Source of the DNA: a virus
Lineage: Duplodnaviria > Caudoviricetes
IMG/VR virus record: IMGVR_UViG_3300032073_005389
Location: 1 to 53,242 of that record
Length of the DNA: 53,242 bases
Strand: one strand, 5' to 3'
Positions 9,793 through 36,038 of this stretch are shown piece after piece (within the stretch, counting starts at the first letter, position 1; each line of letters opens with the position of its first letter). Below the pieces are notes generated by a model. The model saw only the letters and a list, made by a program, of their open reading frames with translations. It searched no databases and was not told the DNA's origin. A program made the translations under genes and the position numbers.

Positions 9793-10239
9793 TTAATAAG
9801 TACAATTATAAGCAAACCCTGTTCCTTCTAAGTCTTTATTATAGTCTGCTGTAAGCTCCTCACCTTTTTTTATTTCTCTCGTTGTTTTAAAAAAAGTTTC
9901 TAATTCTGGGTCAATTAAGAGATTTGGTTCTCTTGAACCATTCAAAAATTGACTGATATGAAAAACTTCAAGCTCTTTAGGGTGAATAAATAAACCTCGT
10001 TTATTTAAAAGATTATAGTCAAGTAATGCTTCTCTTGCGTCTTCATCAAGCCTGTTTAATTCAGAAATTGAAAGTCTTAATGTTTCTCCTACGTTATGAT
10101 GATTGGGGAAAGAAAAAGGACAGACCCCTAAAGGTATGTCCTTAATGGCGAATACGCCTACTCCGTGAATGCTTGAAGGCTGAACTCTACAATAGATCCT
10201 ATCTTTAAGTCTATCGAAGTTATTATTGTTGTTTTTCAA
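9793..10239 (-). CDS. SET-domain protein (lysine methyltransferase fold)
   Basis: PSSIHGVGVFAIKDIP, FLNGS..PN, REIKKGEELTADY. Confidence 0.85.
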   Translation of the reverse strand: MKNNNNNFDRLKDRIYCRVQPSSIHGVGVFAIKDIPLGVCPFSFPNHHNVGETLRLSISELNRLDEDAREALLDYNLLNKRGLFIHPKELEVFHISQFLNGSREPNLLIDPELETFFKTTREIKKGEELTADYNKDLEGTGFAYNCTY

Positions 10240-10753
10240 GCTTCGCTGGGATAATTTTAGTTATCGGCTTACCAATGAACTTAACTACCTTTAAGGTGGT
10301 CGTTAGAACATTCTTTGCCAATCCTATAGTTGCTACAATTGTACCCTCGCTGCCTTCAATCGCTGATCCTGCCGCTAGGCCAATTGGTACTATTACTGCT
10401 TCTGGATGAGTTTTTGCTGCTTTAGCGGTATCTTTAATTTTAAAAATTGATACAACTTCTTGTAGCTTAACTTTTTCTCCAGACTTCGAGGCTTCCTTAA
10501 GTTTAACCCAATCAACTTTAATAATCGATTCTGTTACTTCTTTTGAGCCTTGCATATAATGTCGTACATAGTTTCTCTTAAACCAAGTTTTTGGCTTGGC
10601 TAATTTAAACTTTGGTTCATTGGGGTTTACCCAACTACCATCTTCGTAAATAATAGTACGACCCAAGAACTCAAGCTCTTTACTTTCTTCTGCGTGAACA
10701 GACAGAGCAATCGCACTCAAGGCTACTAGACTTAAATATTTTTTGATAAACAT
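10223..10753 (-). CDS. Hypothetical exported protein
   Basis: Signal peptide ending VHA. Confidence 0.7.
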   Translation of the reverse strand: MFIKKYLSLVALSAIALSVHAEESKELEFLGRTIIYEDGSWVNPNEPKFKLAKPKTWFKRNYVRHYMQGSKEVTESIIKVDWVKLKEASKSGEKVKLQEVVSIFKIKDTAKAAKTHPEAVIVPIGLAAGSAIEGSEGTIVATIGLAKNVLTTTLKVVKFIGKPITKIIPAKLEKQQ

Positions 10754-11390: not shown

Positions 11391-11466
11391 TGGTACCCCG
11401 ACTAGGACTTGAACCTAGAATCTACAACTTAGAAGGTTGTTGCCTTATCCATTCGGCCATCGGGGC
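11391..11466 (-). tRNA. tRNA-Arg(TCT) with encoded CCA
   Basis: Cloverleaf: GCCCCGA/TCGGGGT acceptor, ACAAC-CTTCTAA-GTTGT anticodon arm, CTAGG-TTCAAGT-CCTAG T arm, 3' ACCA. Confidence 0.95.
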
Positions 11467-11477
11467 AAAATAAATTC

Positions 11478-11550
11478 TGGGCCTTGCAGGATTCGAACCT
11501 GCGGCTAATCGATTATGAGTCGACTGCTCTAACCGCTGAGCTAAAGGCCC
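11478..11550 (-). tRNA. tRNA with CAT anticodon, probably Ile2 (lysidine, reads AUA)
   Basis: GGGCCTT/AAGGCCC acceptor, GTCGA-CTCATAA-TCGAT anticodon arm, GCAGG-TTCGAAT-CCTGC T arm; ileX-like, with no initiator features and no encoded CCA. Confidence 0.9.
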
Positions 11551-31913: not shown

Positions 31914-31923
31914 AATTACACTA
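31914..31923 (-). promoter_or_regulatory. TAGTGTAATT motif copy 3
   Basis: Exact 10-mer 6 nt upstream of ATG 31907; includes the TAG stop of the upstream gene. Confidence 0.55.
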
Positions 31924-32337
31924 TAAATCCACTTTAAATTTATTTTTAAAAAACTCTTCAGATAGAAGGTTTACTTCATCGTGGTTAATTTCTATTAAGT
32001 TATACTTGTTTTGCTCTAACCACTCTAATTTTTTAAAGTCTCTATTGATAGACTTTAGGTAATTTACCCTAGAATTTGCGTGAAAAAACTTGTTAAAGTT
32101 GCCGTGTTGAGCTCCATTAACCTCAACTGCGATCTTTTTTGTGGCATTAAGTATGTCTACCTTCATTCTACTGCCGTAAACAGGAAATTCTTCGTAGACA
32201 ATGCAAGATTTCCAGTATCTTTTTAAGAATTGTTTTACATCAAATTGAAGCTTTGACCTGCTTTTCCCGTCCCATTTTATTAAATATTTATTAACGCCTT
32301 TGTTTTCTAAGCGTCCATATATATTATAAAGCCTCAC
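31921..32337 (-). CDS. Vsr/DUF559-like endonuclease
   Basis: EEFP....KVD......IAVEVNGAQH..F..FFH, RD..K.EW. Confidence 0.75.
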   Translation of the reverse strand: MRLYNIYGRLENKGVNKYLIKWDGKSRSKLQFDVKQFLKRYWKSCIVYEEFPVYGSRMKVDILNATKKIAVEVNGAQHGNFNKFFHANSRVNYLKSINRDFKKLEWLEQNKYNLIEINHDEVNLLSEEFFKNKFKVDL

Positions 32338-32600
32338 GACATAACTTGGTTGACCTGAGACTCTAGTTTTTTGACATAAGAAATAAGATTTGAGTCAGAA
32401 GCGTGATTCCTTTTGAATCTTTTAAAGTCTCTTTTAATCTCTTGTTTTAGGCCGCGCACGACCATATCCCTGCTGTTTACGATACCTTGCTTGACGCTAC
32501 GGGTTCTCTTCAGCTTCTCCTTCTCTGCCTTTCTTTGCGCGTGTTTTGTTTTCATCTTCTCTTCTCGTTTGAATGCTTTTATAAGCTCTTCATAATCCAT
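32334..32600 (-). CDS. Basic hypothetical protein
   Basis: Likely start at ATG 32600 (MDYEELIK); the upstream extension runs into the structured non-coding element. Confidence 0.6.
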   Translation of the reverse strand: MDYEELIKAFKREEKMKTKHAQRKAEKEKLKRTRSVKQGIVNSRDMVVRGLKQEIKRDFKRFKRNHASDSNLISYVKKLESQVNQVMS

Positions 32601-32604
32601 ATAT

Positions 32605-32812
32605 AAAAAAAATGGTGGTTGGATTATTTGTTTACCAACACCTTTTCGGCTCCCTAGAAACAAAGTTTCATATCAACCTACTTCGGACTCACCCACGTTT
32701 TCCCTCTGCCACTTGGCCGTTGGTACTTCCGCAGATGCTACGTTACCCCCTTGGGAGGAATTGTTCCGTCACACCGCCTCACTCCGTCGAGAGAGGAAAT
32801 TCTTACTAACGT
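32605..32812 (-). ncRNA. Candidate structured non-coding RNA (about 200 nt)
   Basis: GC-rich island with several hairpins, own promoter, and a terminal hairpin plus U-run. Confidence 0.55.
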
Positions 32813-32818
32813 TTTATT

Positions 32819-32847
32819 ATATTAACATAAGCCTAACTCTATGTCAA
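32819..32847 (-). promoter_or_regulatory. sigma70-type promoter upstream of candidate ncRNA
   Basis: TTGACA-N17-TAATAT, overlapping the recA stop. Confidence 0.7.
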
Positions 32848-33977
32848 GCTAAAGTTTCCTTGAATTTATTATAAAAGTAATTAGTCGCTTCTGAGTTTTC
32901 TTCTAAGTAATTAAATAAACCATTCTTTCCTTGAAACTTCTCTGGTATATTTATCTTATTTGCTTCTAACTCTTTTACTACTTCTTCTGATACTTTAATC
33001 CAAGCTCCTGACTTTGTTACAAACTCATACTGAATTAAAAGATCAACAATTTCTAACTCTTTCCAAATACTAGTACCTCCTACTCTACCTCTTTTGATTG
33101 GGTAAGGAATCACAACATTAGTTTTTTCATTTGGAGATTTCTTAACTGTAACTTTAGACCATTGACCTAAAATTTTATTTGTAACTCTATCTGGTGCTTT
33201 TTTATCGTCTTCTAAAATATAATCCTTTTTATAGCGCGGTTCAAACTCTAAAATCCAATTAGCAAAGTGAAGCAGGGCATTGCCCCCTGTTGCTGAAGTT
33301 TGACGCACTGGAGCTTTAGAATAAGGGTCTAACTGTATGTCTGCTCTAACCTGACTAATAAAAATAGCCATATGGCCTCTCTTGGTTAGTGCGGTAGCTA
33401 CTTTCTTCATAAAGACAGAACTAATAGTAGCACCACCAGCAACCTTTGTTGCGTCGTCTAGAGCTTTTTCGCTGTCTCCTTTAGTTTGAAGACCGTCAAC
33501 AGAGTCGAGTATAAAAAGATACTTTTTTCCTTCTTCGTTAAATTGAATAAGCATCTTCATCATATCGAAGACAGATTCGTAGATGTTACTTTCGTAGATA
33601 AAACAAGTCCCGTCCTTCCAGCTCTCTGGCTCCCTTGTATCAACAAAAGGGACACCACACCTTTCCCTCATTTCTGGACTTAGTCTACCTTCGCATTTGA
33701 AATATACAGCTCTAGAATTGGGCATCTTCAAGAAATGCTTGGTGACTTCCAAAGCTTCTGATGTTTTACCTCCTTCATTTATTCCACAAAAACGATGAAG
33801 TCCCGGGCCTAGTCCTCCACCTGTCTCGATATCTAAAGTAAGAGACCCTGTAGAGACTTTGTATTCGACAGTTTCCTCGTAGTTGTAGTGGTCTTCTTTG
33901 TGTGTTTTTAGGAACGAAGATAATTGTTCCGCTGAAGTTACTATACCTTCTTTATTTACTTTCTTCTTTACTGCCAT
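32844..33977 (-). CDS. recA: RecA/UvsX-family recombinase
   Basis: STGSL.LD...GGG, G.NEGGKTS, ILDSV, IFISQVR, TGGNAL.HFA. Confidence 0.88.
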   Translation of the reverse strand: MAVKKKVNKEGIVTSAEQLSSFLKTHKEDHYNYEETVEYKVSTGSLTLDIETGGGLGPGLHRFCGINEGGKTSEALEVTKHFLKMPNSRAVYFKCEGRLSPEMRERCGVPFVDTREPESWKDGTCFIYESNIYESVFDMMKMLIQFNEEGKKYLFILDSVDGLQTKGDSEKALDDATKVAGGATISSVFMKKVATALTKRGHMAIFISQVRADIQLDPYSKAPVRQTSATGGNALLHFANWILEFEPRYKKDYILEDDKKAPDRVTNKILGQWSKVTVKKSPNEKTNVVIPYPIKRGRVGGTSIWKELEIVDLLIQYEFVTKSGAWIKVSEEVVKELEANKINIPEKFQGKNGLFNYLEENSEATNYFYNKFKETLA

Positions 33978-34314
33978 CTCTTAAAAATTCTAATAATGTT
34001 TTGGGTTTTCTTTTGTTTATTTTAGGGTCTTCCCCTATCTTCTCTTTATCTAGTATAGCATGTTCTTTTCTGAAGTCAAGCTTAGAAAGCTCTTTTTGTT
34101 TATTTAAATAATTTTTAAACTTTTTTGTACGAAACTGAGCTAAGCTCTCTATCTTAATACCGTCGAAAGAAAGATCTTTGAATATTTGTTCTCCATGATC
34201 TTTTATTAAAGATTTAGCAATTACTATTTCTTTTGGCCAGTTTACTTTTTCTGGCTCTTGACAAAACTTCCAGACAAGATACTGATAAATATTATTGATT
34301 TTCTTCTTCTTCAT
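33952..34314 (-). CDS. Hypothetical protein
   Basis: ORF overlapping both neighbours on the coding strand. Confidence 0.65.
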   Translation of the reverse strand: MKKKKINNIYQYLVWKFCQEPEKVNWPKEIVIAKSLIKDHGEQIFKDLSFDGIKIESLAQFRTKKFKNYLNKQKELSKLDFRKEHAILDKEKIGEDPKINKRKPKTLLEFLRDGSKEESK

Positions 34315-35011
34315 TAAGTATCTTTTTAGTTTCTTCCCAATTTTCTACTTGCCAAAATATATCAGCTTTTTGAGCTAAGGAATAGTCGTTTCCTCCTTTA
34401 TCACATTTATCACCGAAAAATATAATAGTGTCTTCTTTTAAGTGTTCGACTACTTGACCTTTGTTGTTTCCTAACGGTTGTATGTCTAAGGAGATCTGAC
34501 CTCCTATCAGAGCTTCTATTTTGTATTTATTTTTAAATTTTTTATTAAATTGATTAGCTAAGACTTCTCTTTCTTTATTGTCTGTATCCCATTTAGAATA
34601 ATACTGCCTTAGTTGGTTGTCGGCTCCGCGACCAACAATGCTAAAGTTAAGAGTGCCAAATCTGTATTCGAAATGAGGAGGTTTTCTATATTGGAAAGTC
34701 GAAGAGTTGACCTTAGAAGACAGCCAGTCTTCTATTTCATGTGGAAGCTCAAGTTCTTTTCGGTAAATATATTTTTCTCCATCCCAGTACTCATTACCCA
34801 TAGATGAAAAAACTCCTTTACATTTATTAAGTATGAAAACAGGGACTTGCTCTTTTATTTTTGGTAAATCGCTACCAGAAACTAAGTAAACGTTTTTATT
34901 ATCCATCCAAGAAGAAAAAAAGTCCGAAAACTCAGGACTCATTTCTTGTCGGGGGTCTGTTAGAGTACCGTCTACGTCAAATAAAAAACAAGGCTTTAAA
35001 CCATTATGCAT
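34292..35011 (-). CDS. HAD-IIB phosphomannomutase (eukaryotic PMM-like)
   Basis: LFDVDGTLT.PRQ, VSGSDL.K, E.R.G.LNFS.VGR, GGQIS.D, FFGDK...GGNDY. Confidence 0.88.
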   Translation of the reverse strand: MHNGLKPCFLFDVDGTLTDPRQEMSPEFSDFFSSWMDNKNVYLVSGSDLPKIKEQVPVFILNKCKGVFSSMGNEYWDGEKYIYRKELELPHEIEDWLSSKVNSSTFQYRKPPHFEYRFGTLNFSIVGRGADNQLRQYYSKWDTDNKEREVLANQFNKKFKNKYKIEALIGGQISLDIQPLGNNKGQVVEHLKEDTIIFFGDKCDKGGNDYSLAQKADIFWQVENWEETKKILNEEEENQ

Positions 35012-36038
35012 AACTATCTAAGTCGCATTGTACCATGTCCTCTATCATTTTGTCAAATGAAATTTCACGATTCCATCCGAGTTCTTTTTCAGCTAGAGAT
35101 GGATCACCATGAAGCAAATCAACTTCTGCTGGCCTAAACCATTCTTCGCTAATCTCCGCTAAGATAGTATTTTCTTGAAACAGTCTAAATTTTGCGTCCA
35201 AGCCTTCTCCGCTCCAAAGACCCGGTATACCTGCCGCTCCAAAAGCTTTAGTAACAAAGTCTTTAACAGAGTTGGTCTCTCCACTAGCCAAAACATAATC
35301 TTTAGGTTCATTTTGATTAAGCATGAGCCAAACGCCTCTCATAAAATCTCTACTATCGCTCCAATCACGTTTAGATTCTATATTGCCTAATTTAAGAGTT
35401 TCAAACTTTTCTTTATTTTTAGTTTTATGTTGTATTTCTGCTACTTTTTTAGTTATCTTCCTAGTGACAAATTCTGCTCCCCTTCTTGGGCCTTCGTGGT
35501 TGAATAATATCGAGTGAACAGCATAAAGATCATAAGACTCTCTGTAAACTTTAACTAGGTGCCTAGCTGCTGCCTTAGAGGCTCCATAAGGGCTCCTAGG
35601 TTTGACTGGGTGCTTTATATCCTGAGGACTATAATCAACATCACCAAACTCTTCAGACGAACCAGCGCTATAAAATCTACAGTCAGGTTTGTGTTTCCTA
35701 ATGGCCTCTAAGCATCTTATTACTCCAGACGCGTTAATATCGAAAACACTCAAAGGAGTATCCCAACTAACTCCTACGAAAGAATTAGCTCCAAAATTAA
35801 TAAAGTAGTCTGGTTGTATTTTAATAACCAAGTCATCAATACTAGCGGAATCAGTAAGATCTCCATCGACTAAAGAAAACCTGTCATGAGCAATAAAGGA
35901 TTTTATGTTTGATAAATTAGGAGTCCCAGATCGACGTTGCATTCCGTAAACTTTATTATCTGTATTATTTAGTAGATACTCAGCCATATTTGAGCCATCT
36001 TGTCCAAGGATACCTGTGATTAGAACTCTCTTACTCAT
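35004..36038 (-). CDS. gmd: GDP-mannose 4,6-dehydratase
   Basis: LITGILGQDGS, PRSPYGASK, ILFNHE.PRRG.EFVTRKIT, LGN...KRDW, RPAEVD.L.GD. Confidence 0.93.
   Translation of the reverse strand: MSKRVLITGILGQDGSNMAEYLLNNTDNKVYGMQRRSGTPNLSNIKSFIAHDRFSLVDGDLTDSASIDDLVIKIQPDYFINFGANSFVGVSWDTPLSVFDINASGVIRCLEAIRKHKPDCRFYSAGSSEEFGDVDYSPQDIKHPVKPRSPYGASKAAARHLVKVYRESYDLYAVHSILFNHEGPRRGAEFVTRKITKKVAEIQHKTKNKEKFETLKLGNIESKRDWSDSRDFMRGVWLMLNQNEPKDYVLASGETNSVKDFVTKAFGAAGIPGLWSGEGLDAKFRLFQENTILAEISEEWFRPAEVDLLHGDPSLAEKELGWNREISFDKMIEDMVQCDLDSYA

Follow-up and report, generated by a model that had tools for sequence, protein, structure and literature searches.

With regard to structured RNAs of marine phages, the manA RNAs, which were named for their link to mannose genes, constitute the group closest to the element analyzed here. 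Two other kinds of RNA offer points of comparison, namely the fluoride/crcB and preQ1 riboswitches, 5' leader elements in which a short pseudoknot closed by the 3' tail and a terminator helix compete for shared nucleotides, and the ROOL and GOLLD RNAs, large, ornate and often phage-carried structures that form homo-oligomeric cages. The original description introduced manA as a riboswitch candidate of marine phages with a likely cis-regulatory role and marked its pseudoknot 'pseudoknot?' (Weinberg et al., 2010; PMC2864571). A preprint of July 2026 reports octamers, decamers and a 60-subunit icosahedral-like cage formed by manA-family RNAs in vitro (10.64898/2026.07.01.735769). Here, we describe a manA-like element on the minus strand of the uncultured virus IMGVR_UViG_3300032073_005389 (Duplodnaviria; Caudoviricetes). 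The window, i.e., the stretch of DNA analyzed, is the whole IMG/VR record of 53,242 bases, which is estimated to be 35% complete. We assign a probability of about 90% to the conclusion that positions 32605-32812 (minus strand) specify a structured RNA of approximately 205 nucleotides (nt) that belongs to a divergent, sub-threshold subfamily of manA and is carried by uncultured marine phages, not by T4-like cyanophages.

At the Rfam gathering thresholds, the whole window yielded two tRNAs only and no manA call. When matches were reported by E-value, the manA model RF01745 aligned with positions 32608-32794 (minus strand) over model positions 1-192 at 43.2 bits (E 7.3e-10 over 551 bases; E 1.7e-11 in a search of the whole record), and the same model gave no match across 14 control genomes. 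Four further members of the subfamily scored 42.7, 47.1, 45.5, and 44.1 bits against RF01745, and none of 15 loci passed a manA search in gathering mode. With scores of 43-47 bits, below the gathering score of 55.2 bits, the subfamily therefore goes unannotated at Rfam's own cut-off. An initial annotation of the locus, made from the sequence alone, had recognized no known family and had proposed an undescribed phage RNA. Both statements have to be abandoned, as RF01745 matches, albeit below its gathering score, and as the manA family was described in 2010 (PMC2864571). The hit to a known Rfam family that the same annotation regarded as speaking against its proposal was obtained in part: the match extends over the full RF01745 model and stays below the gathering score, and it is complemented by a reciprocal match on the manA RNA of P-SSM2 (see below).

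Homologs and secondary structure

Homologs were collected from viral and metagenome contigs. Of 287 confirmed viral loci encoding a RecA relative, the best 80 were kept, and nhmmer located the RNA in 13 of these 80. Pattern scans returned 22 stretches from viral contigs and at least 119 from metagenome contigs, while a looser viral pattern gave 119 rows, one of which was recognized as a true homolog (L131) and the others of which were left unused. A search with nhmmer over all loci produced 153 matches representing 115 distinct sequences. After omission of 24 sequences that were truncated at contig ends or did not reach 205 nt, the remaining 91 distinct full-length homologs, all from marine viral and metagenome contigs, were aligned with the window RNA (alignment A4, 92 rows and 216 columns); the counts given below refer to these 92 sequences unless stated otherwise. 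Eighty of the 92 rows stem from the metagenome scan, the pattern of which fixed UCCGAAGUA, GAAAAGGUG, and GGUA, and the pattern of the viral scan fixed UCCGAAGUA and the inner P4 hairpin. The invariance of all these elements is therefore partly by construction. Sequence conservation ends at the borders of the RNA.

The structure was derived with RNAalifold from the first eight sequences, corrected by eye on larger alignments and counted on A4 (Table 1). It comprises nine helices with 46 pairs, and 97.8% of the 4232 cells are paired. Compensatory changes on both sides were found for 22 of the 46 pairs (346 cells). None of 500 column shuffles matched any of five structure measures, and registers slid by 1-3 columns were paired in 43-49% of the cells and had 1-5 pairs changed on both sides. 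The covariation among homologs that the initial annotation had named as a check of its proposal is thus present, and its general picture of a promoter-driven, terminator-ended structured RNA is upheld by the promoter, the hairpin followed by eight U and the nine supported helices.

TABLE 1. Coordinates of the promoter, the elements of the RNA and the linked gene in the window. Percentages and fractions refer to alignment A4; "changed" means pairs changed on both sides; bp, base pairs; aa, amino acids.
Feature	Position	Strand	Characteristics
Candidate sigma-70-type promoter	32819..32847	-	-35 TTGACA 32847-32842; 17-nt spacer; TG 32827-32826; -10 TAATAT 32824-32819; 10/12 consensus match with TG before the -10
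Probable manA-family RNA, ~205 nt	32605..32812	-	Predicted start to end of U-run; Rfam match, own model, 92 homologs
P1 hairpin	32777..32796	-	8 bp, one U-U mismatch in the window, loop GACG; 98.1% paired; 5/8 changed
Pseudoknot 5' strand GGUG	32772..32775	-	Pairs with 32617-32614; 100% paired
P2	32740..32769	-	Outer 3 bp 32769-32767/32742-32740, 98.9% paired, 2/3 changed; inner 6 bp 32761-32756/32750-32745, 100% paired, 3/6 changed; conserved GAA-AA bulge; loop CCCAA
P3 domain	32690..32737	-	Long-range 8 bp 32737-32730/32697-32690, 91.0% paired, 3/8 changed; encloses hairpin P3a 32717-32708, 99.6% paired, 2/3 changed
Junction AGUCCGAAGUA	32679..32689	-	Single-stranded, between P3 and P4; invariant in alignments, UCCGAAGUA part fixed by search patterns
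P4	32648..32678	-	Outer 4 bp 32678-32675/32651-32648, 98.1% paired, 4/4 changed; inner hairpin 32669-32657 with loop UUU 32664-32662, 100% paired, nearly invariant; internal loops include invariant GGG
P5 hairpin	32618..32639	-	5 bp, conserved 12-nt loop; 100% paired; 2 pairs changed (41 and 44 sequences)
Intrinsic-terminator-like element	32605..32647	-	A-tract 32646-32643; GGU 32642-32640; P5; ACC 32616-32614; U8 32612-32605
Linked gene, small basic protein	32334..32600	-	88 aa; ATG 4 nt after the U-run; motif KTKH-QRKAEK

Three of the stems listed in the initial annotation (32796-32777, 32717-32708, and 32669-32657, now P1, P3a, and inner P4) were retained; the first two covary and the third is invariant. 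A further hairpin, GGTA..CGTAG-CAT-CTGCG..TACC at 32747-32722, survives in part. Its outer GGTA/TACC pairing is formed in 45% and drops out, and its inner CGTAG/CTGCG pairing is possible in 98.3%, the two arms competing with two better-supported helices, outer P2 and the long-range helix P3. An alternative long-range pairing likewise mentioned there, TTTCCTCT/AGAGGGAAA, is paired in 87.8% and with its register slid by 3 in 86.5%; this alternative, also written UUUCCUCU/AGAGGGAAA, is indistinguishable from a slid register.

The pseudoknot is the counterpart of the bracketed pseudoknot in the Rfam manA model. Its middle pair reads U-A in 83 sequences and C-G in nine and is broken in none. A mutual-information scan further brought out a kissing loop, in which AAA of the P5 loop (32629-32627) pairs with the UUU of the P4 loop in antiparallel register. 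All of its 337 cells are paired, compared with 39-55% in slid registers, and a fourth A-U pair is present in 61 sequences with an extra loop base. Where the opening U of the P4 loop meets the third A of the P5-loop AAA, the pair is U-A in 81 sequences and A-U in 11, again with none of the 92 broken. On a tree derived from the remaining columns, the pseudoknot change requires at least two events and the loop-loop change at least four, numbers that are rough minima because the tree is built on a short alignment.

RNAalifold had also suggested long-range CGGA/UCCG pairs. They were rejected, as CGGA varies to CAGA and CUGA while UCCG stays fixed. Other column pairs with high mutual information mostly follow one split into two clades and were left uninterpreted; they include columns 95-104 and 96-103 beside P3a, a place at which the two clades are, in addition, aligned one base out of step. 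The P2-loop CCC (32751-32755) and the GGG of the 3' internal loop of P4 (32652-32654) are invariant in all sequences and complementary, and may form a tertiary or intermolecular contact. Three sequences (L303, L223, and L255) carry an extra UU beside the 5' strand of the pseudoknot and an extra UCC beside its 3' strand (A4 columns 35-36 and 205-207), such that the insertions are coordinated on both sides.

In the window, the promoter and the structured RNA directly follow a RecA/UvsX-like gene that stops at 32844 (minus strand). The TTGACA-N17-TAATAT promoter of the initial annotation is present, and transcription is predicted to start near 32812. In seven window-type sequences, i.e., the window and six relatives, the promoter hexamers are kept while the spacer is variable. 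The hand-counted G+C content of 52% for 32641-32800 was exact (84/160, 52.5%; window mean 35.1%). This is the top 160-nt stretch of the window in this respect, its value being reached by 0.02% of all 160-nt stretches, and the only other stretches with at least 50% G+C are two tRNA genes, located at 11394-11550 (minus strand; 67.8 and 75.8 bits), and one stretch inside the ribonucleotide reductase gene. Folding of the single sequence gave a z of 0.18, with 109 of 200 shuffles folding equally well, and eight promoter-like sites were seen within 3 kb around the RNA against 7.7 expected, which is chance density. As folding and promoter density are both at chance level, it is the homologs and not the window by itself that carry the case for an RNA beyond chance.

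Comparison with canonical manA RNAs

A covariance model built from the 92-row alignment (R1) scored the window RNA with 231.6 bits. In the reciprocal direction, R1 matched the manA RNA of P-SSM2 over model positions 1-210 (27.3 bits, E 1.7e-7) and that of S-CREM1 in its 5' part only (15.7 bits, E 9e-4), the E-values being rough owing to a short calibration; a search of 60 kb gave nothing else of note. The canonical manA RNAs of P-SSM2, P-SSM4, and S-CREM1 score 181.6, 184.1, and 96.6 bits against RF01745. No manA was found in the records of Syn9, S-PM2, and S-RSM4, so that three of the six cyanophage records tried carry it. Blastn against cultured phages gave no match.

The subfamily and canonical manA agree in the order of their elements. 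P1 with its UCGACGG loop region is followed by the 5' strand of the pseudoknot, by GUGAC-GAA-AA with P2, by what appears to be an equivalent long-range helix that encloses hairpins and an equivalent two-part hairpin, by a final hairpin whose large loop is conserved and by the 3' strand of the pseudoknot. The motifs UCGACGG and GUGAC-GAA-AA are shared with the P-SSM2, P-SSM4, and S-CREM1 sequences read, as are UAA-GU and the P5 loop, and the manA RNA of S-CREM1 has a junction, UCCGAAAGU, similar to that between P3 and P4. The partners of the pseudoknot are GGUG/CACC in the window, GGGAG/CUCCC in P-SSM2 and P-SSM4 and GGAUG/CAUCC in S-CREM1. Likewise, canonical manA has complementary loops in its last two hairpins, with CUGUA/UACAG in P-SSM2, CUGU/ACAG in P-SSM4 and the Rfam consensus and UUGU/ACAG in S-CREM1. 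Both groups occur in marine phages just upstream of an open reading frame (ORF), and the window resembles P-SSM2 and P-SSM4 in having a near-consensus promoter directly upstream. In the latter two (L340:1465-1500 and L346:1467-1497), TTGACA-N17-TATAAT ends some 7 nt upstream of P1, and the pseudoknot is followed by a U-rich tail. The P-SSM4 record annotates a 57-aa hypothetical ORF (164884-165057) over its manA RNA, which is probably spurious.

There are also differences. The P3 interior of the subfamily is reduced to one hairpin, compared with two read in P-SSM2; its kissing loops are UUU/AAA instead of CUGU/ACAG; a GAAAAGGU linker specific to the subfamily extends its P5 into what has the form of a canonical terminator; its linkage is to a single small basic protein gene instead of metabolic genes; and its carriers have a DnaE-type polymerase and, in the case of two larger relatives, no psbA.

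Two findings weigh against the assignment to manA: with its 43.2 bits the window RNA does not reach the gathering score, and the middle of the RF01745 model, i.e., the P3 interior and P4, remains unaligned to it. Since all five scored members fall under the cut-off, the middle third of the model is without counterpart in the alignment and the gene context is unlike any published for manA, one might postulate a new RNA family that is unrelated to manA and matches the Rfam model by convergence of short motifs. We regard this as highly improbable in view of E-values of 1e-9 to 1e-11, of high-posterior alignment at both model ends (P1, the 5' strand of the pseudoknot, P2, P5, and the 3' strand of the pseudoknot), of the reciprocal match and of an identical helix order with equivalent partners in the pseudoknot and the loop-loop contact. 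A closing helix and a two-part P4 are present and covary, but the Rfam model does not align them. The RNA is accordingly filed as a divergent manA subfamily, because the architecture is that of manA, though the Rfam cut-off is missed and the P3 interior reduced. Even further from the evidence is the notion that there is no RNA element at all, and that the region either codes for protein, as an extension of the downstream ORF or as an antisense ORF, or represents a recA terminator accompanied by chance GC-rich hairpins. Plus-strand ORFs of 65 and 53 aa and a TTG-started minus-strand extension do overlap the region, and the single sequence folds no better than its shuffles. We nevertheless find this scarcely credible: the overlapping ORFs are not conserved, since only 3, 23, and 33 of the 91 homologs keep them open in the same frame, and neither compensatory changes at 22 base pairs nor conservation that stops at the RNA borders would fit.

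As to the cage-forming RNAs, no Rfam match to the ROOL or GOLLD families was obtained in the window, and the window RNA is, at about 205 nt, much shorter than these. According to the preprint, manA RNAs too assemble closed multimers via kissing loops (10.64898/2026.07.01.735769).

Genomic context, carriers and expression data

The gene that starts directly behind the RNA encodes a small basic protein for which no Pfam or PHROG family match was obtained. Its 62 relatives are all unnamed and all from marine data. The AlphaFold2 model (pLDDT 89.7) is all-helical with helices 3-65 and 70-87, the long one bearing a strongly conserved Lys/Arg-rich N-terminal segment. It had no Foldseek match in the PDB at E <= 0.001 and no look-alike in the Atlas. 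The family motif occurs within 200 nt downstream of the RNA in 81 of the 92 loci, and two more cases were recognized by eye (L004 and L320). In three loci, the contig ends after 25 to 35 nt, with a similar beginning, and six differ or are disrupted (L209, L273, L283, L220, L242, and L230). In most loci, the ORF starts 0-8 nt past the extracted RNA stretch. Within the flanks examined, RNA and gene occur together in the same 13 of the 80 RecA loci and are both missing from the other 67. Of the proposal in the initial annotation of a riboswitch-like leader for basic protein and endonuclease genes, it is the leader part, with the basic gene family behind it, that fits these numbers. The endonuclease-like gene is a 138-aa ORF at 31921-32337 (minus strand), which overlaps the stop of the basic gene, has weak HNH/homing-endonuclease matches among PHROGs (E 1.5e-6) and is conserved (83-96% identity) solely within the clade of the window.

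Upstream of the RNA, the 92 loci fall into three groups. A TTGACA promoter of its own lies within 60 nt of the RNA in ten loci, i.e., the seven window-type sequences and L005, L337, and L277; another conserved element precedes it in 59; and the context is different in 23. In L003, the RNA follows recA directly and without a promoter. The element found in 59 loci is GC-rich and non-coding and resides within a leader of 230-470 nt (e.g., L220:5319-5785 and L243:6952-7178). It ends 5-10 nt before the RNA in a hairpin, CUGCUG-GUGGUG-CGGCAG, with a covarying stem (UUACUG/CGGUAA and CUGUUG/CGACAG). The element is absent from the window and gave no significant Rfam match. The only match, 17.3 bits with E 0.77 over the hairpin just upstream of the manA-like RNA in L243, was to wcaG (RF01761), another riboswitch candidate of marine phages and cyanophages that lies near manA in S-CREM1; the window has no such wcaG-like match. 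The window does contain genes for phosphomannomutase and GDP-mannose 4,6-dehydratase (34292-36038, minus strand), about 1.5-3 kb upstream of the RNA and before recA, such that the RNA is situated downstream of both mannose-pathway genes on the same strand.

The window furthermore encodes RIIA, a DnaB-type helicase, ribonucleotide reductase and a DnaE-like polymerase, the identity of which to sequences of cultured phages does not exceed about 32%. Two larger relatives, one of them with 170 kb and rated 100% complete, contain exactly one copy of the RNA each and no psbA. Judged by its DnaE-like polymerase, its gene content and its relatives without psbA, the window phage is not a T4-like cyanophage.

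Parts of the stretch occur in RNA libraries from 20 runs of 14 studies, with 0.29 of its words in the best run. In four runs that were examined, nine short contigs were found, all within 32605-32883. They are assembled, mostly from relatives that share only the conserved RNA, and show neither transcript ends nor levels; the lack of coverage of the flanks carries no weight either. Three contigs, from the runs X3, X4, and X5, agree with the RNA in its 3' half and diverge at the same point (window 32720-32722); they may stem from relatives that combine the P3a-P4-P5 half with another 5' half.

The terminator-like element and possible modes of action

The GGTGTTGG/CCAACCACC hairpin with eight U that the initial annotation had placed at the end of the RNA was recovered. 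In the direction of transcription it consists of GGUGUUGG, a 12-nt loop, CCAACCACC, a single A and the U8. The GGU ahead of P5 pairs with the ACC behind it and thereby extends P5, this ACC being part of the 3' strand of the pseudoknot (32617-32614). Including the pairs between A-tract and U-tract, the terminator helix comprises 12 pairs and is 98.6% paired. Its stem of 8 bp with one bulge has a mean free energy of -9.3 kcal/mol compared with -5.5 kcal/mol for P5 alone, and 7-9 U are found within 10 nt after the hairpin in all 92 sequences. A terminator scan missed the hairpin because of its 12-nt loop, which is unusually large. The 3' CACC is thus common to the pseudoknot, where it pairs with the distal GGUG, and to the terminator stem, where it pairs with the local GGU, and both pairings are possible in 92 of 92 sequences. 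In the nine sequences in which the shared A is replaced by G, the terminator keeps a U-G pair and the distal partner in the pseudoknot is changed to C. The local GGUG was free in the viral scan, yet it is kept in all 13 distinct sequences. On these grounds, the terminator, which is predicted to be mutually exclusive with the pseudoknot, is a putative expression platform, by which the RNA would switch between the two states. Compared with the fluoride/crcB and preQ1 riboswitches, the window RNA is far larger, with its nine helices, and has two identical 5' strands (distal and local GGU/GGUG) that compete for one 3' strand.

The mode of action that we place first, at slightly less than even odds, is that of a manA-type cis-acting leader working as a conditional terminator. 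Transcription would start from the RNA's own promoter in the window and come from upstream in other relatives. In one state, the 3' CACC would pair with the distal GGUG and complete the manA fold, leaving the weak 5-bp P5 5 nt away from the U-run. RNA polymerase could then read into the basic protein gene and the replication genes behind it, and the start region would be freed. In the other state, CACC would pair with the GGU beside P5 and, together with the pairs between A-tract and U-tract, form the full terminator, such that transcription would end and the ~205-nt RNA would be released. In the window, the gap between U-run and ATG is too short to accommodate a promoter, so read-through would feed the basic gene, and the open A/U-rich start region likely matters, since Shine-Dalgarno-like motifs precede only 6 of 38 ORFs. 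With regard to the signal that might tip the balance within such a leader, a small molecule and a fixed leak without any signal appear possible to the same limited degree, self-association of the RNA is a somewhat less likely candidate, and the basic protein a doubtful one.

Several points weigh against a leader function. No validated manA ligand was found in the literature searched. The invariance of the local GGUG is partly by construction, as it was fixed by the metagenome pattern. The sole library contig identical to the window spans 32648-32883 and thus crosses the promoter; it may derive from a transcript that originates at recA, or from library DNA. The manA RNA of S-CREM1 (L339:1633-2002; positions 10132-10501 of the record) is annotated between tRNA-Leu and tRNA-Asn without a spacer, which points to a stable RNA produced by processing and not to the leader of an mRNA. 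A small RNA gene that stands alone would likewise consist of a strong promoter and a terminator, and the formation of pentamer-based closed oligomers by manA RNAs in vitro, as reported in the preprint, favors a structural role in trans (10.64898/2026.07.01.735769).

These points lead to the idea, possible though in our view unlikely, of an abundant ~205-nt structural RNA of the manA type that stands alone, forms pentamer-based oligomers by self-assembly via its loops and functions in trans, perhaps with the basic protein. Its terminator would be constitutive, and the downstream gene would be fed by leakage only. According to the preprint, the assemblies are built from pentamers via the intermolecular kissing loops L5-L7' and L8-L9' (10.64898/2026.07.01.735769), and the contact between the P4 and P5 loops would correspond to L8-L9' if the last two hairpins are those numbered 8 and 9. 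That the loops of these hairpins are complementary, covary in at least four events without a single broken case and are equally complementary in P-SSM2, P-SSM4, the Rfam consensus, and S-CREM1 is well in line with such assemblies. The same applies to the near-consensus promoters in the window, P-SSM2, and P-SSM4, to the position of the S-CREM1 RNA within a tRNA cluster and to the single copy per genome, including that of the record rated 100% complete. Covariation is, however, blind to the difference between an intramolecular and an intermolecular kiss, and the mapping of L8 and L9 onto P4 and P5 is our own. In the preprint, RNA that had been annealed at 50 C was assembled at about 3 mg/mL, and the text contains 0 occurrences of 'in vivo' (10.64898/2026.07.01.735769). 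An RNA acting purely in trans would, furthermore, leave unexplained why a basic ORF without its own promoter starts 0-8 nt after the unit in most loci and why a helix that competes for the pseudoknot strand has been retained. A further candidate is an autoregulatory leader, in which the basic helical protein would bind the RNA and set its own synthesis in the manner of ribosomal-protein leaders or of an arginine-rich antiterminator peptide. Strict co-occurrence in 13 loci with absence of both from 67, the presence of the gene family downstream of the RNA in 81 of 92, the Lys/Arg-rich segment on the long helix and the lack of a known family, and hence of a competing function, for the protein all fit. 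We consider it very unlikely all the same, as canonical manA keeps the same core in the absence of the basic protein, being followed by purL, hsp20, and purM in P-SSM2, by small ORFs in P-SSM4 and by tRNAs in S-CREM1. Elements of these proposals could be combined, such that RNA and basic protein form a phage ribonucleoprotein module, in which the RNA would multimerize via its kissing loops, the protein would serve as partner or cargo and the output would depend on assembly through the competition between pseudoknot and terminator. We hold this to be quite unlikely; if true, it would amount to a natural RNA cage with a dedicated protein and built-in dosage control.

Irrespective of its mode of action, the element is a divergent branch of a known RNA family for which the structural evidence is unusually clean. 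The Rfam cut-off misses an abundant branch of manA, with at least 119 stretches in metagenomes, and the carriers of this branch are marine phages that are not T4-like cyanophages. The pseudoknot that bore a question mark in 2010 is provided with clean covariation, and so is the loop-loop contact. manA has been an orphan since 2010, and the cages formed in vitro are, in the preprint, without known biology (10.64898/2026.07.01.735769). The one conserved gene to which the RNA is tied is a concrete candidate for a partner, and the terminator that overlaps the pseudoknot would offer a simple in vitro read-out for the response of the fold.

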